Assembly (NCBI GenBank): GCA_003516025.1
Contig: CP023991.1
Location: forward strand, 360,001 to 392,000
Source: Candidatus Saccharimonadota bacterium
GTDB lineage: Bacteria; Patescibacteriota; Saccharimonadia; Saccharimonadales; UBA4665
DNA length: 32,000 nucleotides
Direction: 5' to 3'
In this document: positions 1 to 32,000 of the stretch, one piece after another
How the letters are laid out: the number at the start of each line of letters is the position of its first letter
How positions within the stretch are numbered: the first letter of the stretch is position 1
Translations under genes and position numbers: made by a program
The notes under the pieces: model-generated
The model's database searches: none
What the model was told of the DNA's origin: nothing
What the model saw: only the letters and a program-made list of their open reading frames with translations

Positions 1-1
1 G

Positions 2-13050: not shown

Positions 13051-13060
13051 GCTACATACT

Positions 13061-13279: not shown

Positions 13280-13298
13280 ATAGAGACAATAACCGTTC

Positions 13299-15065: not shown

Positions 15066-15126
15066 CGGTTGCGTTAACCGCCTGTTTACAGTACAATTAC
15101 CCGAGTAAATCAGCAGTTACCGACCC

Positions 15127-15213: not shown

Positions 15214-15217
15214 AACT

Positions 15218-15250
15218 AAAAGCCCAGGCATTTGTCTGGGCTTTTAGTTT
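15218..15250 (+). terminator. Rho-independent terminator after tRNA-Leu(CAG)
   Basis: AAAAGCCCAG-gcatttgt-CTGGGCTTTT followed by AGTTT. Confidence 0.8.
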
Positions 15251-15365
15251 GGTTTGAGCGAACATGAAACTCCAGTCGCGGAGGTGAGAATTGCCAGTGG
15301 GAATTCTCAAGGCAATCTTCCGATGCCAACTATGTTGGCAATAGTGAAGTTGCGGGGCTACGAAA

Positions 15366-15392
15366 GGTGGCCAAGTCCTCTCATCTTGCGGA
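15366..15392 (+). pseudogene. tRNA-Leu 3'-end-like fragment (degenerate T arm plus acceptor strand)
   Basis: CAAGTCCTCTCATC (15372-15385) is a 14-nt exact copy of tRNA-Leu positions 15193-15206 and 19076-19089. The flanking bases are degenerate and no cloverleaf can be completed. Confidence 0.55.
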
Positions 15393-15397
15393 TACAC

Positions 15398-15443
15398 TAT
15401 TGACATAAGAGTTATAATATATTATACAGCCACTGTCAATACC
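15398..15443. repeat. Inverted-repeat element, copy 1 (TATTGACA-28 nt-TGTCAATA)
   Basis: Shares TATTGACATAAGnGTTATA (18/19) and CTGTCAATACC (11/11) with copy 2 at 18882-18921. Confidence 0.7.
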
Positions 15444-15464
15444 CCTTGTGCTTAACCTGTGAAT

Positions 15465-15474
15465 TGCTTATAAT
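15465..15474 (+). promoter_or_regulatory. Candidate promoter -10 region (TGCTTATAAT) for the 528-aa beta-helix protein gene
   Basis: TATAAT at 15469-15474, 27 nt before the ATG at 15502, with AAGG between them. Confidence 0.35.
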
Positions 15475-15501
15475 TTGGTTAACTAAGGTAGAATTACATA
15501 T

Positions 15502-17088: not shown

Positions 17089-17231
17089 GCCCCGAATAGG
17101 CGCTATGGGACGCTCGTGAGTACTTATAACTTTTTACCCCGCACTATAAAATCCCAAAATAGCATAAGCATTGCGTTAGACTGTGTGTTATCATAAGCAC
17201 TAAGAAATGGTGAGGATTTAAACGAAAAACT

Positions 17232-18869: not shown

Positions 18870-18881
18870 GCAGCTCTAGGG

Positions 18882-18921
18882 GGTATTGACATAAGCGTTA
18901 TATACACCTGCTGTCAATACC
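18882..18921. repeat. Inverted-repeat element, copy 2 (GGTATTGACA-20 nt-TGTCAATACC)
   Basis: Perfect 10-bp arms. Lies 13 nt after the FAD-oxidase stop and 88 nt before tRNA-Leu(GAG). Matches copy 1. Confidence 0.7.
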
Positions 18922-19009
18922 TTCTGACTTTTAACGGCTACGGGCTTGAGTTTTTAACTAAAAACAGATACGATAGGTGGGTTCTTTTACATTCCCAGGC
19001 GGTCAGTAC

Positions 19010-19096
19010 GCGGATGTGGTGAAATTGGTATACACGCTACCTTGAGGTGGTAGTGGGCGCAAGCTCGTGGAGGTTCAAGTCCTCTCATCCGCACCA
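19010..19096 (+). tRNA. tRNA-Leu (anticodon GAG), type II, CCA encoded
   Basis: Identical to the tRNA at 15127-15213 except for the anticodon arm (CTACC-TTGAGGT-GGTAG). Confidence 0.93.
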
Positions 19097-19137
19097 AGAC
19101 TATATATCGTATGGTATACTGTTTTGGTAACAATTCA

Positions 19138-19214
19138 GGGTGATTAGCTCAGTTGGCTAGAGCATCTCGTTTACACCGAGAGGGTCGGGGGTTCGAGTCC
19201 CTCATCACCCACCA
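19138..19214 (+). tRNA. tRNA-Val (anticodon TAC), CCA encoded
   Basis: Acceptor GGGTGAT/ATCACCC, D arm AGCTCAGTTGGCTAGAGC, anticodon arm TCTCG-TTTACAC-CGAGA, T arm GGGGGTTCGAGTCCC, 77 nt. Confidence 0.93.
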
Positions 19215-19221
19215 AAACAAG

Positions 19222-19250
19222 AAGGTTCCGCAAGGAGCCTTTTTGTTTTG
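19222..19250 (+). terminator. Rho-independent terminator after tRNA-Val
   Basis: AAGGTTCC-GCAA-GGAGCCTT (8-bp stem with one G-U pair, tetraloop) followed by TTTTGTTTTG. Confidence 0.8.
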
Positions 19251-19363
19251 GTTTACACTTTTCGCTGTGTACAGCTCGTCAGCATGACTTTCCCCGGATG
19301 GAGCTTAAGGTATTCATGGAAGTGTATCGACAGGTAATTCTTAGGTATGGTTGTTTGGTGGTG

Positions 19364-19397
19364 CCGCGGTGCGGTCAAGGTTCTGACCGCACCGCGG
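19364..19397 (-). terminator. GC-rich hairpin downstream of the SPFH gene (putative terminator without a U-tract)
   Basis: Perfect 13-bp inverted repeat CCGCGGTGCGGTC-aaggttct-GACCGCACCGCGG, 29 nt beyond the stop codon at 19426-19428. Confidence 0.5.
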
Positions 19398-19425
19398 ACC
19401 GGGGTAGTTCAGTGGTTCCGTCGGC

Positions 19426-20346
19426 TCAGCGCGGGGTGTTGGTCCCGGTGCTGGGGAGTACGAGCGCCGACTGCGAGCCAGGCCAGCAGGTGAAGCCGGC
19501 AGGCGGGGCCAGGTTCTTGTTGACCATCTTGTCCAGGATGTCCATGCACTGGCTGACCAGCACGTTGGGGTCGTTGGACACCGAAGCGGCCAGAGCAGCG
19601 TTGGCGGCAGCCTGGGCGGTGGCGGTCAGTTCGGCCTGCTGGGCGATGCGGGTCTGCGCGATCTGCGACTGCAGGGCGTTGACGCGCTCGTCGGTGTTGG
19701 GGTCCAGGTCGACCAGCGTGACGAGCACGTCGATGGCCTCGATCTGATCTCCGATCTTGGTGCCCACCTCCTTGGTCGTGTTCTCGGACAGCACCGCCAG
19801 GCTGGGTGCGGTGGGGTTGCCCTCCTCGTCGACGCCGAGCGGGTCGTAGTCGTCGAAGGTGGCGGTCAGCGCGGCACCGAGCTGGCGGGTCACCAGGTTC
19901 CTGCGGATGTCGTCCAGTTCACGGTGGTCCTGGTAGAGCGTGTCCGCCGCGTCCGTCAGGATGCGCCAGCTGATCGACACGTCGATGCAGGCGGTTGCCT
20001 GGCCGGTGATGCGGACCTTGAAGCAGTCCTTCTCGCCGTTGTGGACGTCGGTCTGCTTGGCGGCGTCGAGCTCGGCGATCTTGTTCCAGGGCAGGATCCA
20101 GTACGGACCGTTCGACATGGTGCCGACCGGGCGACTGAACGAGACCTCGACGCCGACCGTCTTTGTGGGCACGGTGTTGAACGACGCGTTCGCGGTGAAG
20201 GCGACGCTTGCCAGCAGCAGCACGAGCGAGATGTTCCGCACGATGCGGGATTCCCTGGGCCGACTGCGGCGGGTCGCGATCCAGCCGAGTAGCAGGATCA
20301 AGAAGAGCACGAAGGCGATGATCGCCAGGATGAAGGAAGGGGGCAT
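19426..20346 (-). CDS. SPFH / band-7 (prohibitin-flotillin-like) domain membrane protein
   Basis: 306-aa ORF. N-terminal TM (FILAIIAFVLFLILLLGWI), then an SPFH-like core (VPTKTVGVEVSFSRPVG...GPYWILPWNKIAELD...) and an Ala/Gln-rich coiled-coil tail (QSQIAQTRIAQQAELTATAQAAANAALAA). AGGAG lies 8 nt upstream of the ATG. Confidence 0.7.
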   Translation of the reverse strand: MPPSFILAIIAFVLFLILLLGWIATRRSRPRESRIVRNISLVLLLASVAFTANASFNTVPTKTVGVEVSFSRPVGTMSNGPYWILPWNKIAELDAAKQTDVHNGEKDCFKVRITGQATACIDVSISWRILTDAADTLYQDHRELDDIRRNLVTRQLGAALTATFDDYDPLGVDEEGNPTAPSLAVLSENTTKEVGTKIGDQIEAIDVLVTLVDLDPNTDERVNALQSQIAQTRIAQQAELTATAQAAANAALAASVSNDPNVLVSQCMDILDKMVNKNLAPPAGFTCWPGSQSALVLPSTGTNTPR

Positions 20347-20388
20347 GTGATGCTCCTGTAGATTGTGGGCGGGGCACAGAACTGAAAT

Positions 20389-20434
20389 CCAGTAGTGCTT
20401 AACAAGCTCATAAAAGCACGCTAAGCACTACTGG
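20389..20434. promoter_or_regulatory. Perfect 13-bp inverted repeat in the AT-rich leader of the SPFH gene (candidate operator or RNA hairpin)
   Basis: CCAGTAGTGCTTA-20 nt-TAAGCACTACTGG, 43-88 nt upstream of the start codon at 20346. Confidence 0.5.
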
Positions 20435-20768
20435 AAGAAACAAAAATATAAGAATTACGCTGTCAAAGTGCTTTGGAGTAATATAACTCAACAAAACCGT
20501 AAAATTATATAATAAACAATAAAAATATGCAACTATCCTAAAAGCTCAAACATGTTGAGCGCTTGGGGTAATGCCGGGTCCGTTTGCTCTCCAAGTTGGA
20601 GAAAACATACGGACCCGGCGGTGGGCGGTGGACGGTGCAGGCGGGGAACTCGAAGTTCCACCATGTGTGCCTGGGGGCGCCCTGGATGAGCGCCCGGGCA
20701 CGGTACCTGGCATGTTCACTGAAAATCCTTCCTGTTTGAGGGGAGTGAGACTGCGGGTTGCCGGCTTC

Positions 20769-21806
20769 TCAGACAAGTCTGCTCTGGAGAACGGCGTGCA
20801 CCTCTTCGGCGTGCGGGATGTACTTGACGCGCTGGATCTTCTTCTCCTCTTCTTGTTGCAGGAGGGTAGCGATCCGGAACGTGCCGTACTTCAGGGCCTT
20901 GTCGGTGGTCTTCTCCTCGAGGTCGATGCTCTTGATGACCGATCGGACGAACGGCTGATCACTCGAGTTGATGAAACACCAGGCCCAGGCCGGCGGCATC
21001 GTGGTCACGAAAATCTTGAACTTCGTGACGGCGAATACCGTGGATTCCCAGGCCGTGATCCGCAGGCGGATCATGAACACGGCGAGCAGCAGTAGGATGA
21101 CGCAGAAGCGCCAGACGACCGACCAGAGCAGCGGCGGCACCGACACGAAGAATAGCCCCATAACCGCGAAGGCCAGCAGCCAGAACAAGCTGAAGGCTGC
21201 GATCACGCACGGCGGAACGAGCCGCTTCAGAAGGACGATCTTGTGCTTGCGGGTGATGCACTCGATGATGTCGTCCTGTTCGACGATCTCGCGTCCGTTG
21301 TTGTCGGTTCTGCGCCGGGGCGCCAGCTTGGTGCGGAAGCGGTCCACGATGTCGTCGGGTGTGTCCCACTTGCGTTCCACGACGACCTCGAGCTTGTCTG
21401 CGTCCGGCTGGTTGCGGCGGTGCTCGGTGGCGGCACGCCGGAGGTAGAACCAGATCAGGCAGGTGTAGACCAGCCAGCTGATACTTCCGGTGATGACTAG
21501 CACTTGCGCGGGAAGATAGATCAGCCCCGTAAGAAAGCCGACCGCCAGCATCATGCCGAAGCCTGCCGGTACGGCGATCAACAGCGGATGCTTCCCCCAC
21601 TGGAGGTAGCGTGGCTCTTGAGGCTTTTTCTCCTTCGGAACCACCATGCCGGCGACGGCAGCTGCCGGTAGGGGTGCGGTGTCGTCGGGGCGGATCGGCT
21701 CGACCGGCTTGTCGGCCTGGCCTGCCGCCTGCTCACGGGACTGCATACGTGCGGCCACTGATGCTCGCGGATCGGAAGGCGGACGAAACCACTGGCTGTC
21801 GGGCAT
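20769..21806 (-). CDS. Polytopic membrane protein with C-terminal bacterial PH (bPH/YdbS-YdbT-like) domain
   Basis: 345-aa ORF. P/A-rich cytoplasmic N-terminus, two TM hairpins, and a C-terminal segment (WESTVFAVTKFKIFVTT...IKSIDLEE...KYGTFRIATL...VKYIPHAEEVHAVL) that resembles bPH domains. GGAG lies 9 nt upstream of the ATG. Confidence 0.55.
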   Translation of the reverse strand: MPDSQWFRPPSDPRASVAARMQSREQAAGQADKPVEPIRPDDTAPLPAAAVAGMVVPKEKKPQEPRYLQWGKHPLLIAVPAGFGMMLAVGFLTGLIYLPAQVLVITGSISWLVYTCLIWFYLRRAATEHRRNQPDADKLEVVVERKWDTPDDIVDRFRTKLAPRRRTDNNGREIVEQDDIIECITRKHKIVLLKRLVPPCVIAAFSLFWLLAFAVMGLFFVSVPPLLWSVVWRFCVILLLLAVFMIRLRITAWESTVFAVTKFKIFVTTMPPAWAWCFINSSDQPFVRSVIKSIDLEEKTTDKALKYGTFRIATLLQQEEEKKIQRVKYIPHAEEVHAVLQSRLV

Positions 21807-21969
21807 GTCTCAACTCCATTCTGTGAAGGAACATTGTCTCTACGGTACTTCCGGAGACGGTGCCTTATTTATATCAATCTATAAGATTTTTGGCTAGCAT
21901 TTAAATATATGACATAGTACACTTATACAAATTATTAGAAAGCTGGTAAAAAATACTTTATTAAGACAC

Positions 21970-22203
21970 TTAAGAATATAAGTTTGCAAATCGTTTATTG
22001 TTCGATTTCAATACTGATTCCTCTATTTCTTGGTCTTTAATTACCCGTGATCGCATCAGCATTGAAACCGGACAGAAAATCCGGCCTTGCTGCTCGCCGT
22101 CCAGTTTTATTACTGTCGAAGGCTTGTAGCCGCGAGGAAAACGTACGTTAACAGTTTCATCGGTAAAATAGAATCTTTTACATCGTTCTTCAGTATGTCC
22201 CAT
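21970..22203 (-). CDS. Hypothetical small protein (77 aa) encoded in an AT-rich patch inside the island
   Basis: Open for 77 codons from ATG 22203 in sequence that looks below 40% GC, where stop codons should be frequent. No SD and no family recognised. The start lies only 18 nt from the divergent ParA-like ATG. Confidence 0.3.
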   Translation of the reverse strand: MGHTEERCKRFYFTDETVNVRFPRGYKPSTVIKLDGEQQGRIFCPVSMLMRSRVIKDQEIEESVLKSNNKRFANLYS

Positions 22204-22220
22204 CACTGAAAGGGGGAACC

Positions 22221-23486
22221 ATGGTATCGGGATCATCCGACTCCGACCGTGGGTGGCAAGGGAGAGATCTGGGCAGACCGCGCCAGATAACCGCAGACAG
22301 CACCATCCAGACCCAAGGGGGAACGAACGCAATGGACAGTGAGTCCGAACGTCAGGTACCACCCGGCGGCTACACAGGCCTGCCGAAGCTCGAGTGGAGG
22401 ATGCGCCGGCTGATCGACCGTGACAAGGCCGTGCCGCCGAAGCCCAGCAAGAAGCAGCGCCGGCAGCTCGATCTCGAGGAGCGTCAGCTCAGCGAGAAGC
22501 AGGCCGCCGACGCGGAGTCGCAGAAGAGGGACCAGCTGGAAGCTGAGTCCATCGAGCGCATCCTGCAACTGGCCGACGAGGTCAAGCACGCCACGTGCGT
22601 GTCGGTCAACTCCAAGGGGAATGGCGGCACCACCACGACGCTGGTCAACATGGCCTGCGTCCTGGGCTGGCTGACCCGCACCCTGATCGTGGTCGTCGAT
22701 GGCAACCCCGCCGAAGGAACCTGCGCAGCTCTGCTGGGCAAGGACCACGGCGCGACCATCAATGTCCAGCAGGTGTCCAGCCAGCTGGAAGCTCTTCGCC
22801 GCAACGCGCGCACCTTCATCGAGGGTGCACGGCCCAACCGTTGGAACGTCCGCACTGTTGCGGCGCTCTCGACGGTGGCTGCGGAGAACAACCCGCTGCT
22901 CGAACCTGACAAGGTCCGGGATCTGATCCAGGCCTGCCAGGAGCACTTCGAGTTCGTCTTCGTCGACACGCCCAACGTGCTGACGAGCGAGGCGGGGCTG
23001 GCGGCTGTTCGCACTGGCGACGTGCTGGTGTTCCCGGCCAACCGGCAGACCAAGTTCTCGCTGCGGCAGCTCGGAACCTCGATGCAGTCGCTCCGCGAGA
23101 ACGGCCTGAAGGACAAGGTCGAGAACTCAGTGGTCGTCATCACCAACCTCGAACCCGAGGATGAGCTGGACGGCTACCGCAAGTTCATGAACCGCACCAA
23201 GATGGACGACTCGGTCATCCAGACCTACGACCAGGACTTCCAGGGCGTGTTCATGGGTGTGCCACACGACGATGTCATCGCACGTGACGATGTCGTCGAT
23301 GTCGAGGCCTGGAGCCAGGAGACGCGTCAGGCGTACTACGACCTGATCATCGCCTGGCTCGAGCAGGTCCTCAAGGAGCGCGAGCACCACGACAGCATGC
23401 CCGTTCCGCCGGAACTGGCAGCACAGAACGGCCACTCCGACAACCGGAGCATGGTCACCACGCACTATCCAGGGGGAGAGTCATGA
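22221..23486 (+). CDS. ParA/MinD/CpaE-like protein with degenerate deviant Walker A and a charged N-terminal extension
   Basis: 421-aa ORF. SKGNGGTTTT (22611-22640) occupies the position of the canonical deviant Walker A motif KGGxGK[ST], as in the typical xKGGvGKTT form; a ParA-like Walker B region follows (FEFVFVDTPNV...GDVLVFP). GGGGGAAC lies upstream of both ATG 22221 and the alternative ATG 22332. Confidence 0.65.
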   Translation: MVSGSSDSDRGWQGRDLGRPRQITADSTIQTQGGTNAMDSESERQVPPGGYTGLPKLEWRMRRLIDRDKAVPPKPSKKQRRQLDLEERQLSEKQAADAESQKRDQLEAESIERILQLADEVKHATCVSVNSKGNGGTTTTLVNMACVLGWLTRTLIVVVDGNPAEGTCAALLGKDHGATINVQQVSSQLEALRRNARTFIEGARPNRWNVRTVAALSTVAAENNPLLEPDKVRDLIQACQEHFEFVFVDTPNVLTSEAGLAAVRTGDVLVFPANRQTKFSLRQLGTSMQSLRENGLKDKVENSVVVITNLEPEDELDGYRKFMNRTKMDDSVIQTYDQDFQGVFMGVPHDDVIARDDVVDVEAWSQETRQAYYDLIIAWLEQVLKEREHHDSMPVPPELAAQNGHSDNRSMVTTHYPGGES

Positions 23487-23866
23487 AGGAGCTCTACGCG
23501 CAAGCCGTCGTGAACGTCTACGACGTTCTGGCAGTCGAAGCGCCGGCCACGCCAGCGCCCGGAGGCAACATCCAGGACTACGTGCCAACCAGCCCGAACT
23601 ACGGTCCGTGGAGCGGGTTGGTCCAGCCGGTGACCTTCGTCGGAGGCATCCTGCTTGGGCTGGCGGCGTTGATCTCGCTGCTGTTCCTGTTCTGGAACCT
23701 GTTCAAGCTGGCCGTCTCACAGGACGAGGACAAGGACCGCGGCATCATGAGGTCGATCAAGAAGAACCTCATCATCTTCGTGATCTGCGGCTTCGCCAGC
23801 ACTGTCCTGCTCTCGTTCTTCTTCGGCCTGCTCCAGCAGGTGGTCAACTCGTTCGGCTCGTCCTGA
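23483..23866 (+). CDS. Small two-TM T4SS-associated membrane protein (VirB2/VirB3-like topology)
   Basis: 127-aa ORF. Two hydrophobic helices (VTFVGGILLGLAALISLLFLFW and LIIFVICGFASTVLLSFFFGLL) around a charged loop. ATGA overlap with the upstream gene. Confidence 0.45.
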   Translation: MKELYAQAVVNVYDVLAVEAPATPAPGGNIQDYVPTSPNYGPWSGLVQPVTFVGGILLGLAALISLLFLFWNLFKLAVSQDEDKDRGIMRSIKKNLIIFVICGFASTVLLSFFFGLLQQVVNSFGSS

Positions 23867-23965
23867 CCGGGACGAGCAACGCTGCTACGCGGCTGCTCCC
23901 GGTTCTGGCAACTTTGCCGGGGGCAGCCCGCGTGGCCTGACATCTATCCGTTAGGGAGGTGAATC

Positions 23966-25057
23966 ATGGCAAATCCGGCATGTTGGATCCTGCCAGGGCT
24001 TTGTTCGAATGGACAAGTCGCTGGTGAGGGTAGCTGGCTCGGTGACTTGCTCTCGTTGTTTGACAGCGATGCCGCCGGCGACACCCTGCGTAGTGCTCTC
24101 GAGACCGTTCAGTCGACCCGACAGTTCGACCTCGGACTGGTGTCGTTCGTCACTACGTACCAGCAGCTGTTCGGCCTGATGCTGATCTTGTCGGTGCTAC
24201 TGTTCTCCTGGACGCTGCTTCGCCTGGCTATCAGCAACAGTAACGGCGAAGAAAGCGTTGCTGGCCTGTTGGCGCCGTTCAAGATCTTCGTTTTCGGCTC
24301 ATTCCTGCTCGTAGCGGGGTCTTTTATCCGTTACCTGGGTGAGCTGGCGACGTGGATCGCGAAACAGTTCCTGCGGGAACAGAACTGGGTCGACGACGTC
24401 ACCCGCGGCTTTTCGTTCGGCGGTTTCTGGGTCCGCATCATCGGCAAGGTGCTCAGCGGACTGCTTCGGTTGGAGATCGTTCCACTGGAGTTGTGGGTGC
24501 CGCTGTTCATCCTGATGGGTTTGATTACCTATAGTTTGACCGCTTTCCGGTCGAACTACGTCATGGGTAAGCCGAGCCGCTGGATGTGGGCTCTGTTACT
24601 GACCGCGCTGACCCTCAAGCCGGCACTGACGCTGTACTTCGGTATCGGCGGCGGGCTCATCATGAACAGTGATGCTCCTGAGGGCGACAAGTCGGTTATG
24701 GTGCTGGCGCTGCTGGCTACTTCGCTTTTTCTCTGGATGTTCGTCTTCATGGCGTTCAACAAGAGGATTCAGGCGTATGTAGACAACAGGGTCCAGGTCC
24801 GGGGTGACGTGCGCAATCGTCCTTCCGGAACTGGTCGCCAACAGGTGGAGGTCAACCGGACGTTCAACGCCCGGCAGTCCAACATCAACCGGTCGGCGCA
24901 GGGCAAGCACGGCCTACGGTCGGCACGACATGCGACCACGGACGCGTCACTGGGGGCCCTCGCCAAGAAGGCAGCCTCGAGTGGACATCCTGCGGTCGGC
25001 ACCACGGTCGTCATCGTCCACGCGTTCTTCAAGGGACGACGCAAGAAAAGCCCGTAG
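23966..25057 (+). CDS. Polytopic membrane protein, VirB6/TrbL-like T4SS channel component
   Basis: 363-aa ORF with about 6 TM segments and a basic C-terminal tail. GGAGGTG SD 5 nt upstream. Its position between the small TM protein and the VirB3/VirB4-like genes matches Gram-positive T4SS order. Confidence 0.5.
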   Translation: MANPACWILPGLCSNGQVAGEGSWLGDLLSLFDSDAAGDTLRSALETVQSTRQFDLGLVSFVTTYQQLFGLMLILSVLLFSWTLLRLAISNSNGEESVAGLLAPFKIFVFGSFLLVAGSFIRYLGELATWIAKQFLREQNWVDDVTRGFSFGGFWVRIIGKVLSGLLRLEIVPLELWVPLFILMGLITYSLTAFRSNYVMGKPSRWMWALLLTALTLKPALTLYFGIGGGLIMNSDAPEGDKSVMVLALLATSLFLWMFVFMAFNKRIQAYVDNRVQVRGDVRNRPSGTGRQQVEVNRTFNARQSNINRSAQGKHGLRSARHATTDASLGALAKKAASSGHPAVGTTVVIVHAFFKGRRKKSP

Positions 25058-25086
25058 GAATCACTGCGACTTTCTGAGGAGGTGAA

Positions 25087-26673
25087 ATGACTGGAGAAAG
25101 TCAGGATCTGACCCCTTTTCGCCTGGATAGTCCGGGTGTTCGGAAGGGTCGGATGTTCCGCGACGCGGGAATGGCTCAGATCGCATGGATGGTCACGATG
25201 TTTCTGGCTGTCTGTGTATCAGGCGTCCTGCATCTGCTGGTACCGGCTCTCGTGGCGGCAGCGCTGTTCTTTTTGGCGCTGCCTGGCGAGGACGGACCCT
25301 TCTTCAACCTGCCGCTGACATGGTGGCACGGATGGAGGATCAAGCGCCACGACAATGTTGTCTGCGAGGTAGATGACGCGGGACAGGCTGTTGGCGGGGC
25401 TATGCCTGAACTACTCGACGACTTGTTCGTCGATGACGTTTTAGGGCAGTTCGCCACCCTGTACGACGAATCGGGAGACACTGACACTGTCTACTGGAGC
25501 ACGGACGGGTGGGAGTACGCCAACGCTGACATGCCTCAGCGCCATGCCGCTCAGATGCAGGAAGCCGCCGCACTCAAGACGGCTATCTCGCAAACGGACG
25601 ACAACATCGCCTACGGGATGATGAATGGCCGGAGGCAGTTCGATCCGTCCGAGTGGGTTGAGGATCTGCGGCAGAATTACCTGCATGAAGACTTTGAGGA
25701 TGACTCGGGGTTGGACGCCGGTGACCGCAGGGCCAAGGCCAACCTGGACAAGGTGTTCTCTGACATGGTGGTGCGCAGACGTTCCAAGGGCCTGGCGCTC
25801 ATCGCCGTGACTGTCCCCCGGCCCCCTGAATGGGCAAAGCTGGTCGACAGTCCTGAGATATTCACCGTGGATCAGCTACGCCGATCGTCGCTCTACCGTG
25901 TGCTCAGCTCACTGGAGCGAGGTCTAGAGGAGGCTGGTTTCAAAGGTCTGAAGTTGTTTGGCAGGGAACAGTTGTTCCGGTACCTGTTCGGGGCGTGGAA
26001 CGTTCACTACCTGACGGGCGAGACGATTGCCCGCAACGAGACCTCTGGGTACTATCAGCTTCCCGGTGCCGACCCGACCGACCCGCCGCAGCTTGGCGAG
26101 GATGGTCGTCTCGTGCACGTGCGGCAGCCGTTCCCCCACCGAGTCAAGGTGGTTCGGAGCGGCCGCAGTGGCAGACGGTACGACACATTGCAGATGGATG
26201 ATGGAAGCTACCACTTCGTGGTGGTCGTCCGGAATTTCCGACGCAAGAGTGGCCTGCCCGGCGCTACCTACCCGCTGATCGTTGGACCGCACAGTCCTTG
26301 GATCATGCACACCCAGAACTGCAACACCGCTTCACAGCAGCTTGACAAGTTCCTGTTGCGAAAGAGGCGGAATCTGCTGATCGGTTGGTTCTCCAACCGG
26401 CGTGGTCTGGGAACGATGTACGAAGAACTCGCTGATCGTGAGCGGGTCGAATCCGAGAGGGGAGCGATCGACAAGATCCACATCTCAGGCTCCAAGCCTA
26501 TCCGTTCTGATCATCGCTTCACGGGAAGCGCGACATCACTGGAGGAACTTGGCAAGGTCTACGACGACCTGGTCGCGACTCTGCGACAAGAAGAACTGAG
26601 TTTCTACCGCGTGAAAGGACGTGCCAGATTGTTTCCGGCATTCCTGTTGGCCGTACTTGGCCCGCGACTGTAG
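25087..26673 (+). CDS. T4SS protein with a VirB3/PrgI-like N-terminal TM hairpin fused to a large cytoplasmic domain (resembles, from memory, actinomycete SCO6880-family proteins)
   Basis: 528-aa ORF. TM hairpin (IAWMVTMFLAVCVSGVLHLLVPALVAAALFFLAL), no P-loop. GGAGGTG SD. Lies immediately upstream of the VirB4-type ATPase. Confidence 0.45.
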   Translation: MTGESQDLTPFRLDSPGVRKGRMFRDAGMAQIAWMVTMFLAVCVSGVLHLLVPALVAAALFFLALPGEDGPFFNLPLTWWHGWRIKRHDNVVCEVDDAGQAVGGAMPELLDDLFVDDVLGQFATLYDESGDTDTVYWSTDGWEYANADMPQRHAAQMQEAAALKTAISQTDDNIAYGMMNGRRQFDPSEWVEDLRQNYLHEDFEDDSGLDAGDRRAKANLDKVFSDMVVRRRSKGLALIAVTVPRPPEWAKLVDSPEIFTVDQLRRSSLYRVLSSLERGLEEAGFKGLKLFGREQLFRYLFGAWNVHYLTGETIARNETSGYYQLPGADPTDPPQLGEDGRLVHVRQPFPHRVKVVRSGRSGRRYDTLQMDDGSYHFVVVVRNFRRKSGLPGATYPLIVGPHSPWIMHTQNCNTASQQLDKFLLRKRRNLLIGWFSNRRGLGTMYEELADRERVESERGAIDKIHISGSKPIRSDHRFTGSATSLEELGKVYDDLVATLRQEELSFYRVKGRARLFPAFLLAVLGPRL

Positions 26674-26706
26674 AAGCTCCTACCGATGACACTACGACGT
26701 GCGCCC

Positions 26707-26745
26707 GCTACGGTGGTGGTTGTTCCACTAAACCACCACCGTAGC
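26707..26745 (+). terminator. Perfect 15-bp stem hairpin after the 528-aa gene (terminator/attenuator-like, no U-tract)
   Basis: GCTACGGTGGTGGTT-gttccacta-AACCACCACCGTAGC, 34 nt after the stop codon. Followed by the palindrome AGTTGAAGTTCAACT and a T5 run. Confidence 0.5.
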
Positions 26746-26890
26746 AAGCACTTCAGACAAGCAGTTGAAGTTCAACTTTTTGTCCGAAATGCCACAGGGG
26801 CATTCGAACGTTAACAACTGAATTACTCCTCCCTGTGCACTTCGAGCCGACTTACATCATACCGACGACACACGAGAGCAGGTGAAAGAT

Positions 26891-28330
26891 ATGGCAAGGT
26901 CAGTACCGACGCGGGGCAGAAGTCACGACACGACAGTTGACGACACCACGCAGTTCGGGCCCACCCACACCACTGGTGGTGCCCAGAAGCGCGGAATACC
27001 ACTCTTCGTCAACGCCGACACCAACGAACCTGAGCCATTCGACCCCGCGGAACTGAAGGCTGAAGGCCGGATCAACTCCACCGTCCTTGGTGTTCTGGGG
27101 AACAAGGGTCACGGCAAGACAGCCACCTCAATCGCTATCGCACTGCGCTTCAGGTGGCGGCGTGCAGGCAACCGCAGGATGTCAATCTGTATCAATGACA
27201 TCAGGCGCAACAATGCCCGGCCGGAGTACGAGAAGCTGTGTGAATACCTTGGCGTTGAAGAGGTGTCGCTCGGCAACTTCCGGCTGAACATGCTGTCGCA
27301 GGATCTGAAGCTGAAGCCGTCGGAGCTTCTGACAATGGTTGCCCGCAGCTTGCAGTTCGAACTGGCGCGGCAACTGACTACCAAGGAGCTCAAGGCTCTT
27401 CGGTACTCGTTGAAGATGGTCCTCGAATTCTTTGAAGACGATGCCGAGCTGTCCACGCTCATGGCATGCATGCGTCGAATGAATGAGGGGATTGCCAGGC
27501 GCTTCCAGAATCAGATCGAGCAAGGCAAGGGTGACAAGTACGCTCGTCACCTCGCTAGGCTTGAAAGGGTTCTGGACACGAAGCCCCAGATCACTCCGGG
27601 ACTACTGGAAACGGCGCTTGAACTGGCTGACACCATCGAGAACCTTCTTGATGGCGAGTATGGCGAAATGTTCGGCGGGGATCACTCGCTGGCAAGCGTC
27701 ATGCATACGAACAAGGGACTCGTGGCGTTCGACTTTTCCGAACTGTCGGACGACGCGCTGACCCAGGTCCTGGCGATGATGTGGCAGGTCAAAACTTCGG
27801 CCATGCGCCGCGGCGACCACGACCTGTACTATGACATCGAGATTCACGACGAGAGTTACACGTTGTGGCGCAATCTCGAGTACGCCAGGTCGATGCACAA
27901 GTTCCTGAAGCAGGTCCGCGCGACGGGGACGTTCATCGTCATGAACACGCACCGCCTCAGTGACTACGAGACGGTAGGCAGTGAGAGCAGTGAGCAGTAC
28001 AAGCTGGCCACCAACATGATCGATGACATCGACATGTGGCTGCTTGGACGGCACACGCCCAGTGCTGCGGAAGACACCGCCAAGCGCCTCGACCTGACGG
28101 ACGAGGAAAAGCAGCGGTTGCTTCACCTGGAGCGCGGCGTCTGGGGACTGAAGATCGGCTCCGAGCCTGTTCGTTGGGTTTACATCGACCTGACGGACGA
28201 TGAAGCCGAAGTGACGTACTCCGACGACGCCAACCGCGAGAACACCGCTGAAGGCATGAACGAAATGCTCGCACGGGCGCTCGATGAAGAAGCTCAACAA
28301 GCCGCCCAGGAAGACCTGGCCATGGCTTAG
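26891..28330 (+). CDS. VirB4/TrsE-type T4SS ATPase (C-terminal ATPase-domain-sized)
   Basis: Walker A GNKGHGKT (27101-27121), Walker B-like IEIHDESYTLW (D-E at 27848-27853), downstream FIVMNTHRLSD motif. AGGTGA SD before ATG 26891; the ORF track starts at GTG 26882. Confidence 0.7.
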   Translation: MARSVPTRGRSHDTTVDDTTQFGPTHTTGGAQKRGIPLFVNADTNEPEPFDPAELKAEGRINSTVLGVLGNKGHGKTATSIAIALRFRWRRAGNRRMSICINDIRRNNARPEYEKLCEYLGVEEVSLGNFRLNMLSQDLKLKPSELLTMVARSLQFELARQLTTKELKALRYSLKMVLEFFEDDAELSTLMACMRRMNEGIARRFQNQIEQGKGDKYARHLARLERVLDTKPQITPGLLETALELADTIENLLDGEYGEMFGGDHSLASVMHTNKGLVAFDFSELSDDALTQVLAMMWQVKTSAMRRGDHDLYYDIEIHDESYTLWRNLEYARSMHKFLKQVRATGTFIVMNTHRLSDYETVGSESSEQYKLATNMIDDIDMWLLGRHTPSAAEDTAKRLDLTDEEKQRLLHLERGVWGLKIGSEPVRWVYIDLTDDEAEVTYSDDANRENTAEGMNEMLARALDEEAQQAAQEDLAMA

Positions 28331-28356
28331 CTACCGTGACATGAGGGGGAACTAAG

Positions 28357-28998
28357 GTGTCACGATCCAGGAAACGTCGATCGACTATCAGGTCGAGCCG
28401 CAGACGGCAGAATGGGCGAAAGCTGCTCTACTTCGTGCTGGCAGCACTACTGATAGCCGCGCTGGTGATGTTGCTGTCCTCAAACGACAGGATTTCATCC
28501 CCACCCGATGATCAGGCGACATCATCCACGTCCGCGCCCAACGAGGAACCGACGGCAAGCCAGCCTTCGGAGCCAACACCCGACGTGGAGCAGTTGAAGG
28601 ACAGTCTCGTCCGTTTCACGGAGGTCTACTACCGTATCCTGCCTTCGGACGGGCCGGATACTCGCAGGTCAGCCGTCGAACAACTGGGCATACCCATGTC
28701 CGAGACGGCGATCGACAGCATGGACTTCACGGTTTATGCCTACGAAGATCCCTTTGGCGCTTCAGATCGCTCTGAGGTGACTGAACAGGGAACGGTTGAC
28801 CTGCCGGCGATGCAGATACTGTCGGAGCTGGACGATGGAAAGCTGTTGTACGTAACAGCTCCCGTTGTACTGACTTCGACAGGACCAGACGGGCACACCG
28901 AAACCAGCACTTTCCTGGTGGGGACTGTCTGGCAGTGGGTGTCCGATGATGGCCGATGGGCTATGACCGCGTTTGGAGAGGAGGGATCATTGCAATGA
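28357..28998 (+). CDS. Membrane-anchored T4SS accessory protein (VirB8/TcpC-like topology)
   Basis: 213-aa ORF. Basic N-terminus, one TM (LLYFVLAALLIAALVMLL), S/T/P-rich linker, ~130-aa globular domain. GTG start preceded by GGGGGA. Confidence 0.4.
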   Translation: MSRSRKRRSTIRSSRRRQNGRKLLYFVLAALLIAALVMLLSSNDRISSPPDDQATSSTSAPNEEPTASQPSEPTPDVEQLKDSLVRFTEVYYRILPSDGPDTRRSAVEQLGIPMSETAIDSMDFTVYAYEDPFGASDRSEVTEQGTVDLPAMQILSELDDGKLLYVTAPVVLTSTGPDGHTETSTFLVGTVWQWVSDDGRWAMTAFGEEGSLQ

Positions 28999-30164
28999 AA
29001 AGCGCTGTGTCGGCTGTTATCGCCCTCATACTGCTTCCCATAGCACTGGTTGCTTCCTTTGCGATCGGTCTGACCGTTGGTGTTGGCGCGACGTCAGGTG
29101 ACGCTTCGTGTGTACCTGCTATCGCCGCTGACGCCAGTCCTCCACCGCCCGCGACCAGTAAAACGGCCGCCGGGACCGACCAGGAGGCCATCTTCCAGGC
29201 AGTTGTCGCCAAAGCCAATGGTGACAACAAGGTAATCCTGTCCATGATGCAAGGTTCATGGCTGGAAAGCCGCTGGAACCGCAATGCCTCTGACGGTGAA
29301 GCCTACGGGCCTTACCAGATCCAGATGCCCGGCGTCGTACATCCTGACGTCAGCATCGCTGAGGCTAAGGACCCCGTCTTCTCGACGAACTACATGTACG
29401 AGGAGTATGCCGAGAAGGCTCAGGCGGTCGATCCGAACCTCTGGATCACCGATCCGCAGTCAGCCGCGGAACTGACGGCGTATCGGGCGGAGCGGCCGAA
29501 GTACATCTACAGTGACAGCCGAAGTCAGGGGCCGGCGAAGGTTGCCGAAGCCTTTCGTGCCGCTGCGGACCTCTTGCAGGCCCACGGTATCTCGCTCGAC
29601 TTCGGTCAAACGGCTGCCGCACCGGCCGCGCCTGATGTACGGACGGTCGCTGCCCGTTCAGAGCCGGTCCAGCAGTGTGCTGCGGACGAACAGAAAGGAA
29701 AGGAGGCAGATGCTGCGCAGGTAAGCCTGGTTTCCAGTGGCTGGACTAAGCCGGTCACGGCTGACGGTGTGCGCTGCACCTCCGGTTTCGGGCCGCGCTG
29801 GAGTACGCAGCACAACGGCGTAGATCTCGCCAATGGTCGACTCGGCACGCCGATCTATGCCGCCGCCGGTGGCACGGTTATCGCGTCGGGGCCTGCCAGT
29901 GGCTTTGGTTGGTGGATCGTCATCGACCATGGCAATGGTATCGTCACGATCTACGGGCACATGAATGGCAAAGACCTCCTGGTCTCTGTCGGAGATGTCG
30001 TCACGCCTGGTAAGCCGATCTCGCGCATCGGCAATGAAGGTCAGTCTACTGGCCCTCATCTGCACTTTGGTGTCAAGGAAGGCGGCATCAGCGGCAAGAG
30101 CATCGACCCCGAGAAGTTCATGGCTGAGCGAGGTGTTGCCTTGTGCGACGGCTCCGCTGCTTAG
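28995..30164 (+). CDS. Bifunctional cell-wall hydrolase: lytic-transglycosylase-like domain plus M23 metallopeptidase (VirB1/PrgK/TcpG analogue)
   Basis: ATG 28995 forms an ATGA overlap with the upstream stop, and GGAGGG lies 9 nt upstream. N-terminal TM. SLT-like LESRWNRNASDGEAYGPYQIQ. M23 motifs HNGVDLA, IDHGNGIVTIYGH, GPHLHFGV. Confidence 0.8.
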   Translation: MKSAVSAVIALILLPIALVASFAIGLTVGVGATSGDASCVPAIAADASPPPPATSKTAAGTDQEAIFQAVVAKANGDNKVILSMMQGSWLESRWNRNASDGEAYGPYQIQMPGVVHPDVSIAEAKDPVFSTNYMYEEYAEKAQAVDPNLWITDPQSAAELTAYRAERPKYIYSDSRSQGPAKVAEAFRAAADLLQAHGISLDFGQTAAAPAAPDVRTVAARSEPVQQCAADEQKGKEADAAQVSLVSSGWTKPVTADGVRCTSGFGPRWSTQHNGVDLANGRLGTPIYAAAGGTVIASGPASGFGWWIVIDHGNGIVTIYGHMNGKDLLVSVGDVVTPGKPISRIGNEGQSTGPHLHFGVKEGGISGKSIDPEKFMAERGVALCDGSAA

Positions 30165-30520
30165 GCAGGCCTGAACTTCCATCACCCCGAGAGGATCCAC
30201 TCGCCAACAAAACAAAAACTTCATATGGGTTTGACGGCCATACGGTATGCCGGAAACGGTAAACATTGTATGGCCGCGCGCGGTTCTCATCCAGGAATTA
30301 CCTGGAGCTGCGCTAGAGGAATGTTTTAGAGTTCCTCGCCTGCAAAAACACCAACGGCCGCCGGGTCCGTGAATGTTCTCCTCTGGAGAGCGTTTAAAAC
30401 CCGGCAACACCCGAAGGATTGAAACACTACTAACAAGTTTAAATTTTTCGGATGTTGTAACATGATATGCCAAGCGCCTGTTCCGCATTAAGGGCTTGCG
30501 CTGAAGCGCGTATTAGTCCA

Positions 30521-30529
30521 TGCTATATT
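30521..30529 (+). promoter_or_regulatory. Candidate extended -10 box (TGCTATATT), 5 nt before the rpoD ATG at 30535
   Basis: CATGCTATATT parallels CATGCTACAAT at 12667-12677. Implies a leaderless rpoD mRNA if 30535 is the true start. Confidence 0.35.
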
Positions 30530-30534
30530 CCATT

Positions 30535-31650
30535 ATGAGTGAACACGCGACAATGCCCGATGCCGATGAACCTTTGGCAGCCCATGATTATATGCTGGAA
30601 AGCGAACGTGACGAGCAAGAAGCGGGGGAAGAATCGTACGAGTCTGTAGTGTCTACTGACTTGGTGCGGGTTTACCTCCGTGAGATTGGTAAAACGGCAT
30701 TACTGAGCGCACCGGAAGAGGTTGACCTGGCTAAGCGTATAGAGGCCGGGTTATTCGCCGGCAAGATAATCGATTACGCGCAATCCGGCAGCGTAGTCAG
30801 TGAAGATACGGCTGAACTCGCGCCAACTATGGATCGAGTGCTTGACGGCTCCGGCTCTTCGCCGAAACAAACGTTGAGGGATCTTCAGGCGGTTAAGCGT
30901 GATGGTGAGCAGGCGTTAGACCATATGGTACGGGCTAACTTACGCCTGGTAGTATCCCAGGCCAAGCGCTACACCGGGCGGGGGCTTAGCTTCCTCGACC
31001 TTATCCAAGAAGGAAATGTCGGCATGATGCACGCCGTAGAAAAATTTGATTACACCAAAGGCTTCAAATTCAGCACCTATGCCACCTGGTGGATTAAGCA
31101 ATCAATTAGCCGTGCTATAGGTGACAGGGCGCGCTTGATACGGCTGCCAGTCCATCTGCATGAAAAAATCGTCAAACAGGGCCGTATTGTACGTGAACTC
31201 GAGCAGACCGGGCAAACCGTAACCGATGAGATGATCGCTGAAGCAATGGGGGGAATTACAGTCGAAAAAGTGCGCGAGTATCGTGACTTGGCGCGTGATC
31301 CAGTCAGTCTGGACCAGCCAGTTAGCAGTGGTACTTCAGGCCGGCTCTATAATGAGTCCTATGTCGGGGATTTTATCGCCGATAAAGTAACGCCGTCCGC
31401 AGAAGCGGAGCATCATCTTACTGAGATGCAGGATGCGATCGGCGGCTTGCTGACGTTATTGCCCAATGACCGGTTACGCCTGATAATCACGCTTCGTCAT
31501 GGCTTGGACGGCGAGAAGCCGCGCACGCTTGATGCTATCGGTGAGCAGATTGGCCTAACCAGAGAACGTGTCCGGCAACTGGAAAAGATAGCCATGAAAT
31601 CACTGCAGGCACATGCTACCAACAAAGGTATGCATGACCTGCTGCAGTAA
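30535..31650 (+). CDS. rpoD: RNA polymerase primary-like sigma-70 factor (RpoD/SigA group)
   Basis: Region 1.2 (DLVRVYLREIGKTALLSAPEEV), region 2 (NLRLVVSQAKRY...LDLIQEGNVGMMHAVEKFDYTKGFKFSTYATWWIKQSISRAI), regions 3 and 4 (TLDAIGEQIGLTRERVRQLEKIAMKSL). The alternative start is ATG 30520. Confidence 0.93.
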   Translation: MSEHATMPDADEPLAAHDYMLESERDEQEAGEESYESVVSTDLVRVYLREIGKTALLSAPEEVDLAKRIEAGLFAGKIIDYAQSGSVVSEDTAELAPTMDRVLDGSGSSPKQTLRDLQAVKRDGEQALDHMVRANLRLVVSQAKRYTGRGLSFLDLIQEGNVGMMHAVEKFDYTKGFKFSTYATWWIKQSISRAIGDRARLIRLPVHLHEKIVKQGRIVRELEQTGQTVTDEMIAEAMGGITVEKVREYRDLARDPVSLDQPVSSGTSGRLYNESYVGDFIADKVTPSAEAEHHLTEMQDAIGGLLTLLPNDRLRLIITLRHGLDGEKPRTLDAIGEQIGLTRERVRQLEKIAMKSLQAHATNKGMHDLLQ

Positions 31651-31653
31651 GTA

Positions 31654-32000
31654 TTAAAGTGGATGAGTCAGCCGCCACTGTAGTGTCGGCTGCGTGAGGG
31701 TGTCTTTAGTATAGAACGTTGAGCTGTAGCTGGTGCCGGCATAGTCGAGCTGCAGTTTACCAACAGTAGTACCGGCAGTGGCTGGCGCCTTGATACTGCC
31801 AAGATCGGCTTTAGGAGAAAGTGCCGTTCCGCTCCAGGCAATCGTATCAACATTGTCTTTTGCTATCACGTCAGTGCGTGAACCCCATTCGGTAGTTACG
31901 CGCCCAACCACCTGGCCGGCATTCAGGACATGGACATTCTGGAATTGCGAGACTGCGGATTGTACTAAGGGAAGCGTGTCACGCAGGGCCTGGCCGCGGG
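31654..32000 (-). CDS. 3' part of a gene running off the window; C-terminal domain resembles PBP5-type D-Ala-D-Ala carboxypeptidase
   Basis: The frame stays open from 32000 down to the stop at 31654; the track shows only the GTG-initiated 85 aa. KAPATAGTTVGKLQLDY resembles the PBP5 C-terminal beta-sandwich pattern. Weak call. Confidence 0.35.
   Translation of the reverse strand, partial: RGQALRDTLPLVQSAVSQFQNVHVLNAGQVVGRVTTEWGSRTDVIAKDNVDTIAWSGTALSPKADLGSIKAPATAGTTVGKLQLDYAGTSYSSTFYTKDTLTQPTLQWRLTHPL

Follow-up and report, generated by a model that had tools for sequence, protein, structure and literature searches.

What is an 11-kb block of GC-rich DNA with parts of a secretion machine doing between a tRNA gene and a sigma factor gene of an epibiont chromosome, and where did it come from? 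The block lies in a 32,000-nucleotide stretch of a Candidatus Saccharimonadota bacterium (positions 360,001 to 392,000 of contig CP023991.1, assembly GCA_003516025.1), here called the window. A first-pass annotation of the window had proposed that the block was captured across phyla from an actinomycete, possibly from a host lineage. Our computational follow-up leads to a different answer: the island is probably an accessory, laterally transferred cassette in a Saccharimonadales chromosome, which has spread within the Saccharibacteria into different sites. It consists of a gene for an SPFH-domain protein and an eight-gene module resembling a secretion system of type IV (T4SS).

The compositional island with sharp edges described in the first-pass annotation is real. 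Its spot counts of GC content were reproduced exactly (0.683, 0.583 and 0.433). Total GC is 0.592 over 19251-30220, against 0.524 over 1-19250 and 0.525 over 30221-32000, a modest step of about 7 points. GC at third codon positions (GC3) is 0.65-0.92 in the nine island genes (mean 0.78) and 0.48-0.65 in the thirteen flank genes (mean 0.57; one-sided Mann-Whitney p = 6e-5); the 16 G/C third positions previously counted among 20 codons of the ParA-like gene agree with a whole-gene GC3 of 0.84. Tetranucleotide distance, measured against the profile of the flanks, is twice as high from about 18-19.5 kb to about 30-31 kb, switching at the same two edges. Nearly every island gene is preceded by a strong Shine-Dalgarno sequence (AGGGGGAA, GGGGGA, GGGAGGTG or GGAGGTG), also as claimed. 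When all gene starts in the window were compared, backbone genes were mostly found to be without a recognisable Shine-Dalgarno sequence. The signals for translation initiation seem to differ between island and backbone. There are deviations in GC, GC3, tetranucleotide distance and Shine-Dalgarno use, as is characteristic of the composition of a genomic island.

On the left, the island is preceded by the genes for tRNA-Leu(GAG) (19010-19096, plus strand) and tRNA-Val(TAC) (19138-19214, plus strand), both called by ARAGORN and matching the Rfam tRNA family. They are followed by a palindromic hairpin with A/T runs on either side (19211-19252, strand not assigned; inverted repeat I17), which is the terminator of the tRNA operon and the final backbone sequence ahead of the island. 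On the right, GC returns to the backbone level just past the last stop codon at 30164. The functional right edge must, however, be placed at about 30456, some 240 nucleotides past the earlier right coordinate, because a conserved non-coding element forming part of the module extends that far. Measured from 19253 to 30456, the island has 59% GC, against 52% in both flanks. The right flank begins with a gene for a sigma-70 family factor with Pfam regions 1.2, 2, 3 and 4 (30520-31650, plus strand), which has backbone composition (GC3 0.55), and a Peptidase_S11 gene stands just past it.

tRNA genes are classic mis-join points, and an island of this kind could be an assembly chimera in which a GC-rich block of another organism was mis-joined at the tRNA genes. 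Both short-read contigs that carry the island (L001 and L002) do stop in or at tRNA-Val, at window positions 19138 and 19168, as a chimera would lead one to expect; these breaks could also stem from similar tRNA-Leu copies nearby or from strain heterogeneity at the junction. The two contigs, one from a JGI metagenome and one from Logan, come from independent short-read assemblies and are 100% identical to the window from 19138 or 19168 to 30346. Three assemblies, counting the 1.0-Mb record, agree base for base over 19138-30346, and the JGI contig (18,639 bp) runs on through the flanking sigma factor gene. Four further Saccharibacteria-type contigs, all of unrelated samples, hold the same module together with both junctions, and the window shares its right terminal element and its Peptidase_S11 neighbour with loci L005 and L014. 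Because two independent assemblies match the window across the island, one of them through the sigma factor gene, a chimera is very unlikely, with a chance close to nil.

The backbone itself is that of a member of the Saccharimonadales (Saccharibacteria, candidate phyla radiation (CPR)), which bears out the earlier guess of a CPR-type epibiont. More than 8000 relatives of its UvrC (9026-10513) were found; identity is 76-88% for the 120 listed, and where these bear an organism name it is nearly always Ca. Saccharibacteria or Saccharimonadales. When 5.8 billion proteins were searched by a word index with the ATPase of the module, by contrast, only ten clusters at 38-66% identity came up, followed by Streptomyces proteins at 25%, so that ten ATPase clusters of at least 38% identity stand against over 8000 for UvrC. 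An exhaustive profile search yielded 509 representatives at E <=1e-3 and 96 at <=1e-30. Among 185,579 GTDB species genomes, peptide patterns covering clades A and B of the module (copies of at least about 36% identity) found a single locus.

We compared ten loci that carry the module: the window, L003, L004, L005, L006, L014, L015, L019, L023 and L024. The copies examined, which include two more distant ones picked from the exhaustive profile search, all have their genes in the same order (ParA-like, pilin-like, polytopic membrane protein, ~500-amino-acid protein, gap, ATPase, ~200-amino-acid protein, hydrolase), and for the closer relatives (31-68% identity) each of the nine contexts examined is Saccharibacteria-type backbone. 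L006 is a named Saccharibacteria metagenome-assembled genome, L023 carries the uvrA...uvrC block with a UvrA 75% identical to that of the window, and a histidine kinase in L004 is 58% identical to one beside tRNA-Val in L008.

The sites of the module differ. It follows tRNA-Val in the window, stands directly after tRNA-Leu(TAG) in L006 and lies elsewhere in L003 and L024. In L023 uvrC and the rhodanese gene enclose it exactly; the distance between these two genes is 35 nucleotides in the window and 8 nucleotides in L008. The synteny comparison with relatives lacking the insert, suggested in the first-pass annotation, gave a consistent picture. The window, L008 (UvrC 86% identical) and L009 (80%) have a common order, uvrA-VTT-L25-ABC-hyp-rhodanese-uvrC...SBP5-FAD oxidase-tRNA-Leu-tRNA-Val, in which L008 and L009 have other genes after tRNA-Val and the module is absent from this locus. 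There is, then, presence/absence polymorphism within conserved synteny, with L008 and L009 empty at tRNA-Val and L023 occupied at uvrC/rhodanese. From the variable sites and the single GTDB locus it follows that the module is accessory, rare and mobile within the Saccharibacteria group. An exact empty site, with tRNA-Val directly followed by rpoD, was not found among the relatives compared.

Some neighbouring features of these loci are worth recording. In L006, two extra GC-rich genes, one of them weakly sortase-like (E 0.0026), lie between tRNA-Leu and the module (2942-5064). In L008, the last ~24 nucleotides of tRNA-Val and its terminator are repeated about 250 nucleotides downstream of the intact tRNA-Val gene (18846-19160), and the window terminator at 19211-19252 is homologous to the one after this tRNA-Val 3'-end copy. 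Since the duplication resembles an attL/attR pair (the two ends of an integrated element) round a short remnant, another element must integrate at this tRNA in the clade. L009 has a LAGLIDADG-like open reading frame (ORF) and an Imm26-like gene near tRNA-Val (19697-21572), with tRNA-Leu(GAG) inverted, as well as two small genes between the rhodanese gene and uvrC (8627-9916). The tRNA-Val and uvrC/rhodanese loci, both of which are module sites in other genomes, are both variable in L009.

Where the GC-rich composition comes from was addressed by comparing the module with its flanks in the ten loci. Module GC3 ranges over 0.59-0.80 and flank-gene GC3 over 0.37-0.77. The module exceeds its flank by 0.30 in L024 (0.66 versus 0.37), by 0.27 in L003 (0.63 versus 0.37), by 0.21 in L023 (0.71 versus 0.50), by 0.17 in the window and by 0.09 in L006 (0.59 versus 0.50). 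With flank GC3 at about 0.70 (L004, L005, L014 and L019) the difference is +0.03 to +0.10, and in L015, with a flank at 0.77, the module is slightly lower (-0.05). The cassette would be compositionally native in carriers with a flank GC3 of about 0.70 and a GC-rich island in lower-GC carriers. In a distance tree of the ATPase, the Saccharibacteria copies form one group with Streptomyces as outgroup, and the window ATPase nests with those of L005 (68% identity), L004 (62%) and L014 (58%), which are copies from higher-GC carriers. Because of this nesting, the donor was probably a higher-GC member of the Saccharimonadales. On the simplest account, the cassette is at home in higher-GC Saccharimonadales and was passed on to lower-GC ones, including the present genome.

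Several points weigh against an accessory cassette spread in this way. Our reading covers just the 32-kb window of the 1,005,782-bp genome, and the assessment of each higher-GC backbone draws on no more than one or two flank genes. Module GC3 rises in part with that of the carrier (slope 0.32, r 0.72, n = 10, for loci that are phylogenetically non-independent), as it also would after long residence with an offset that is maintained. Mutual identity of 25-68% marks the copies as old, yet their GC3 stands 0.27-0.30 above the backbone in the lowest-GC carriers; a single ancient transfer followed by simple amelioration fails to account for these data, because old copies keep a large GC3 excess. 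Either frequent transfers from unsampled donors or some force that keeps the module GC-rich would account for the excess. The window, L005 and L014 also have the Peptidase_S11 gene as a common right-side neighbour (46-48% identical to that of the window), and vertical inheritance within this subgroup is therefore possible. The function assigned to the cassette draws on resemblance of fold and topology, and the assignments of VirB2, VirB3, VirB6 and VirB8 are weak or positional. The mechanism of insertion is conjecture, since neither transfer machinery nor recombination scars were found.

Part of this evidence would suit a native, vertically inherited T4SS whose GC is held high by selection (on expression, codons or Shine-Dalgarno sites) or by GC-biased gene conversion. 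GC is elevated in every low-GC carrier despite the deep divergence of the copies, module GC3 follows that of the carrier in part, and the right-flank neighbour is common to three loci. T4SSs are, moreover, said to be conserved throughout the Saccharibacteria and essential (PMC11665869), and the canonical CPR cluster has a similar set of genes, with a pilin, VirB6, a VirB4-N-like protein by VirB4 and downstream hydrolases (bioRxiv 10.1101/2025.01.22.634366). A native system is difficult to reconcile with the different sites in conserved synteny, with the absence of the module from the tRNA-Val locus of L008 and L009 and with its great rarity relative to backbone genes. Its ATPase is also nearly invisible to Pfam (AAA_10 matches 3 of 76 relatives, and there is no Pfam match in the window), whereas the canonical VirB4 is found by the standard VirB4 profile in about 80% of CPR genomes (bioRxiv 10.1101/2025.01.22.634366). 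We regard a native system as distinctly unlikely and continue to favour an accessory cassette moving among Saccharibacteria.

Could the island instead have come recently and directly from a high-GC actinomycete, possibly the host of the epibiont? The known hosts of cultivated Saccharibacteria are Actinomycetota, and the actinomycete character noted in the first-pass annotation was confirmed as a family affinity. Of 72,556 plasmids, 39 match the ATPase, all from Actinomycetota (34 from Streptomyces), at 24-27% identity and with tblastn E down to 7e-11; four match the SPFH protein, again all from Actinomycetota, at 32-38% identity. The strong Shine-Dalgarno sites and the high GC3, which reaches 0.92 in the SPFH gene, are what such a donor would have brought. 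Gene order also runs parallel to that of Streptomyces plasmid and chromosomal T4SS clusters, in which an NlpC/P60 or SLT+NlpC/P60 hydrolase, a protein of 113-116 amino acids, one of about 260, a membrane protein of 622-625, a 506-amino-acid SCO6880 protein, an ATPase of 516 amino acids (wrongly annotated as a 'type VI secretion protein') and, immediately behind the latter, the T4SS coupling protein (T4CP) succeed one another.

The relationship extends to several components. Hidden Markov models (HMMs) of the families of Saccharibacteria copies match the Streptomyces ATPase (8.7e-15), the SLT+NlpC/P60 hydrolase (3.8e-20) and, weakly, the 625-amino-acid membrane protein (1.4e-4). The HMM of the 528-amino-acid family gave no match to the Streptomyces SCO6880 protein, and hhalign aligned the two collinearly but non-significantly (E 0.015, probability 3%); the Streptomyces counterpart weakly matches PrgI and EccE. 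In the literature, SCO6878, SCO6880 and SCO6881 resemble CmdB, CmdC and CmdD, CmdB is VirB4-like, and the Cmd-related genes of plasmid SLP2 are required for conjugal transfer (PMC2782261). These profile comparisons show that ATPase and hydrolase are homologous through shared ancestry, as, on weak evidence, is the VirB6-like protein, and support a distant ancestor common to the cassette and the actinomycete Cmd/SLP2/SCO6871-6884 clusters. An ancient transfer is compatible with the data in either direction.

A close actinomycete source is another matter. All closer relatives whose contexts were examined are in Saccharibacteria-type surroundings, with Streptomyces as the outgroup in the tree. With amino-acid composition as a taxonomic proxy, 147 of the 149 listed ATPase representatives other than that of the window are mid-GC, and the two that are actinomycete-like come at about rank 130. 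The actinomycete T4CP is absent from the cassette, and the leader RNA of the cassette is absent from the Streptomyces clusters. Nor does the island use the tRNA as an attachment (att) site or carry an integrase. Given an identity of about 25%, the composition of the representatives, the missing T4CP and the RNA-bearing gap, recent capture from an actinomycete host is unsupported, and we allow it a slight chance. The SPFH gene could have a separate history, possibly a recent capture of its own. For the module as a whole, transfer among Saccharibacteria is the reading on which the rest of this account proceeds.

The contents of the island agree with the T4SS module and SPFH protein reported in the first-pass annotation. 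Domain calls were made with Pfam and NCBIfam, and transmembrane (TM) segments were counted with a TM scan. The core of about 9.9 kb (20524-30456) is made up of two divergent transcription units. The motor is a 482-amino-acid P-loop ATPase resembling the C-terminal domain of VirB4 (26882-28330, plus strand), for which ATG 26891 is the likely true start, giving 479 amino acids. Its Walker A (GHGKT) and Walker B (DIEIHDE) motifs are invariant among relatives. The AlphaFold model (predicted confidence, pLDDT, 79) has as its top PDB fold the VirB4 C-domain of T. pseudethanolicus, 4ag6 (Foldseek E 1e-10, TM-score 0.71), followed by HerA and TrwB, and at the sequence level there is a weak NCBIfam match to VirB4_plasma (E 0.003). 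Judged from the predicted fold, the protein belongs to the VirB4-family ATPases and would hold the C-domain only.

Upstream of the ATPase gene, a gene for a 528-amino-acid protein (25087-26673, plus strand) encodes, by TM scan, an N-terminal TM hairpin, in the position of VirB3/PrgI, together with a large soluble domain. By position, the protein corresponds to the SCO6880-family protein of Streptomyces. Members of its family match NCBIfam weakly: SCO6880_fam in 2 of 10 (E 0.06) and VirB4_plasma in 1 of 10 (E 0.1). A PDB profile search found nothing, and an AlphaFold model of the protein, built with three sequences, was unusable (pLDDT 34).

The main operon opens with a gene for a 421-amino-acid MinD/ParA/CpaE-like protein of P-loop fold (22221-23486, plus strand; weak Pfam AAA_31; NCBIfam CpaE_hom_Actino/MinD/ParA), the ParA-like gene with GC3 0.84 mentioned above, which is kept in all module copies. 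Its Walker A motif, KGNGGTTTT, looks degenerate and is without the usual GK[ST] lysine. By analogy with TadZ/CpaE, the protein may have a non-catalytic positioning role. The second gene encodes a VirB2-like T4SS pilin candidate of 127 amino acids with two hydrophobic helices by TM scan (23483-23866, plus strand), with matches to Pfam T4SS_pilin (E 7.7e-4, under the curated cut-off) and to the NCBIfam model of the pilin-like protein Mbov_0395 of an integrative and conjugative element (ICE) (E 1.4e-5). A polytopic membrane protein of 363 amino acids with about 5-6 TM segments by TM scan (23966-25057, plus strand) follows as a VirB6-like candidate; it has no Pfam match.

Downstream of the ATPase gene stands that of a 213-amino-acid bitopic protein (28357-28998, plus strand), which by TM scan has a TM segment at its N-terminus besides an extracytoplasmic domain and which is kept in module copies. 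It has no significant family match in Pfam or NCBIfam, and by size and topology it would suit a VirB8-like role. The topologies as a set (2-TM pilin, 5-6-TM protein, N-terminal TM hairpin and bitopic protein) are T4SS-like, and these channel components have no significant family matches.

The last gene of the operon encodes a membrane-anchored cell-wall hydrolase (28956-30164, plus strand; likely start 28995, giving 389 amino acids). It has a C-terminal Peptidase_M23 domain (Pfam E 1e-27), as expected of a VirB1-type peptidoglycan hydrolase, and a conserved N-terminal domain with the motif ES...GPYQIQ. Among copies the N-domain is kept and the C-domain is exchanged for M23, NlpC/P60, NlpC/P60+M23 or VanY (hydrolase genes in relatives: L003 12115-13251, L005 10894-12147, L015 2753-4234 and L019 5065-6204). 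As a speculation, the swapped C-domains fit variable host cell walls as the target.

Divergent from the main operon is the gene for a 345-amino-acid membrane protein, hyp345, with about 4 TM segments by TM scan (20769-21806, minus strand; GC3 0.83). BLASTP found homologues in L004, L005 and L014. In L003 a 321-amino-acid protein with a bPH_2 Pfam match takes its place, a positional counterpart whose relation is unconfirmed by BLASTP. The SPFH/Band_7 membrane protein (306 amino acids, N-terminal TM segment; 19426-20346, minus strand; Pfam Band_7 E 6.6e-10) is encoded outside the left terminal element of the module, by the GC-richest gene of the island. An SPFH/Band_7 gene also lies just outside the left terminal element in L005 (561-1475, GC3 0.87). 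BLASTP of the two proteins gave no alignment at all, so they are analogous, non-orthologous neighbours.

Two structured RNA elements accompany the genes. The first, a conserved RNA of about 140 nucleotides with three helices (26690-26827, plus strand), lies in the gap between the gene for the 528-amino-acid protein and the ATPase gene. The gap measures 150-300 nucleotides and recurs in L003, L004, L005, L006, L014, L015/L018, L019 and L023. Across the ten module copies this leader RNA is better conserved than the flanking proteins. RNAalifold predicts 37 pairs, and compensatory double changes occur at 21 of these; the paired share of cells is 94%, compared with 32-47% once partners are slid, and none of 500 shuffles reached the observed values. 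The minimum free energy has a z of -7.2. A covariance model finds the leader once per module, with 109-132 bits on the plus strand against 30 bits or fewer on the minus strand, and finds nothing in the backbone or in the Streptomyces loci. Its covariation and position make it a candidate cis-regulatory leader of the motor ATPase gene.

The second element, of about 200 nucleotides, occurs twice. The right copy (30220-30456, plus strand; nhmmer E 2e-59; fold z = -4.9) is the true right end of the island, and the left copy (20524-20740, minus strand; nhmmer E 1e-46; fold z = -5.7) lies downstream of hyp345. Since the two divergent units end in the same element, the core is bracketed by inverted copies. 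The element also follows the hydrolase gene in L003, L005, L014, L019 and L006 and the divergent gene in L005 and L014 (L005 12188-12437 and 2018-2248; L014 10009-10163; L003 13396-13550). It consists of a GCCGGGU/ACCCGGC stem around a small hairpin, then a long terminal hairpin with a U-rich tail. Both parts have the support of covariation, with compensatory changes at 12 of 21 pairs and a paired share of 87% of cells, as opposed to 31-52% with slid partners. Conserved G-U pairs point to an RNA of the sense strand, that of the genes upstream. On this pattern we read the terminal elements as structured 3' ends or terminators that would insulate the cassette; they may also serve as recombination sites. 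Transposon-type terminal inverted repeats were set aside as the leading reading in view of the conserved G-U pairs, the compensatory changes and the absence of a transposase.

An Rfam 15 scan of 18800-30700 returned no family for either element at E <=1, and permissive scans of each element gave chance matches only, to microRNA- or CRISPR-repeat-like hairpins (E 0.7-10). When metagenomes were scanned for the terminal element by a 26-base gapped pattern, four matches came up, all in DNA of 62-77% GC, which were judged to be chance. Three of them are near-identical and coding-like, and the four are without nhmmer support, the other features of the element or homologues of window genes. Scans of viral contigs, with the DNA pattern and by ATPase alignment, found nothing. 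A scan for consensus promoters and terminators remained at chance level.

How would such a cassette move and work? No ORF of the island has a Pfam or NCBIfam match to an integrase, recombinase, transposase, relaxase or T4CP family. No direct repeat of at least 9 nucleotides, copies of tRNA 3' ends included, was found between 18990-19450 and 30100-30560. An 11-nucleotide A/T-rich inverted match between the junctions was judged to be chance. Because coupling protein, relaxase and integrase are all missing, the cassette is not a self-transmissible conjugative element. Insertion probably took place by recombination after DNA uptake, or through a recombinase acting in trans; natural transformation has been reported in Saccharibacteria (PMC11665869).

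As for its function, the core may encode a minimal, monoderm-type, T4SS-like envelope machine. Its motor would combine the VirB3-like/SCO6880-like protein with the separate VirB4-C-domain ATPase, and the proteins would assemble into a VirB6-like channel in the cytoplasmic membrane with a short VirB2-like surface structure. The muralytic enzyme would open the peptidoglycan locally, and the MinD/CpaE-like protein would position the complex. Most likely, the result would be a channel for contact-dependent translocation or uptake where epibiont and host meet. Its cargo, which could be protein, DNA or something else, would pass between the epibiont and the cell on which it sits, or would be imported as in ComB- or Ced-type systems.

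A bolder version of this account can be formulated. The island could be a previously unrecognised, Saccharibacteria-specific mobile cassette: an integrase-less and relaxase-less T4SS-like machine with its own structured RNAs, namely a leader ahead of the motor ATPase gene and matching 3' elements at either end, spreading from one epibiont genome to another, kept GC-rich whatever the carrier by GC-biased gene conversion or by selection tied to expression, and serving as an exchangeable host-interface organ whose swapped muralytic domains adapt it to host walls. We consider this full combination of claims possible but unlikely.

If the accessory cassette is accepted, it shows that sizeable functional modules move between reduced epibiont genomes. 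As a candidate second, exchangeable T4SS-like cassette, it would provide a natural presence/absence experiment on epibiont-host interface machines, and it links CPR machinery to the poorly understood actinomycete Cmd/SLP2-type systems. The two structured RNAs, new in that they match no Rfam family, are concrete regulatory candidates in a phylum that, according to a perspective article, still lacks tools for inducible expression. That the cassette shows a consistent GC excess across carriers of very different GC is unusual and needs explaining. It is the conjunction that deserves attention: mobility of a whole machine between reduced genomes, a GC excess, no recognisable mobility genes and two new RNA motifs.

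Two backbone ORFs of the window, at 6388-8070 (560 amino acids) and 15502-17088 (528 amino acids), were also found to be without a Pfam match. The first, which raises GC locally (to 0.59 at 6501-8000), is only 45-48% identical in L008; its product is a fast-evolving protein and possibly a surface protein.

We finally compared the cassette with known systems. Like tRNA-adjacent islands and ICEs that use tyrosine recombinases, it lies beside a tRNA gene, has a deviant composition, is absent in relatives and occupies a variable locus. Unlike the tRNA-adjacent ICEs, it starts after the tRNA terminator, has no duplicate of the tRNA 3' end on its far side and has no integrase. With the conjugative T4SSs of monoderms (ICEBs1 Con, pCF10 Prg/Pcf, pCW3 Tcp and the mycoplasma ICE) it has in common the VirB4 fold, a small pilin-like protein (the weak match to the mycoplasma ICE) and a membrane-anchored two-domain muralytic enzyme. 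It differs from them in having no relaxase, T4CP, integrase or oriT-like feature, and in that its VirB4 is a C-domain-only protein with a separate upstream protein.

The canonical T4SS of the CPR clade (Quinonero-Coronel et al.) is derived from MPF_FATA, is essential in Ca. Southlakia epibionticum and is presumed to act at the epibiont-host interface and not in conjugation. CPR VirB4s form a CPR-specific clade inside monoderm MPF_FATA; their clusters are without relaxases, and VirB2-like pilins, VirB6, PrgI, a VirB4-N-like protein and downstream hydrolases are encoded nearby (bioRxiv 10.1101/2025.01.22.634366). The cassette is similarly chromosomal and relaxase-free, with VirB2-like, VirB6-like and VirB3/PrgI-like candidates and a hydrolase downstream, and the canonical system also has a VirB4-N-like protein (TrsD) beside VirB4. 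The two differ in that the canonical system is near-universal with a profile-detectable VirB4, whereas the cassette is rare, stands at variable sites, is GC-foreign in low-GC carriers and has an ATPase that escapes Pfam. Of 2474 CPR VirB4s, a small minority of 49 fall among other classes and were interpreted as having been acquired independently (bioRxiv 10.1101/2025.01.22.634366).

The likeness to the Cmd/SLP2/SCO6871-6884 systems of actinomycetes (Streptomyces cmdABCDEF, SLP2.19-23 and the plasmid clusters of SCO6880, 'type VI' protein and T4CP) is one of gene order. Both have a pilin-sized protein, a polytopic protein, a ~500-amino-acid protein and a ~500-amino-acid VirB4-like ATPase, with a bifunctional hydrolase adjacent. 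The cassette has no T4CP next to its ATPase, and its RNA-bearing gap of 150-300 nucleotides separates genes that abut in Streptomyces. Particular to the cassette are its MinD/CpaE-like gene, the divergent membrane protein, the structured terminal elements and its CPR carriers.

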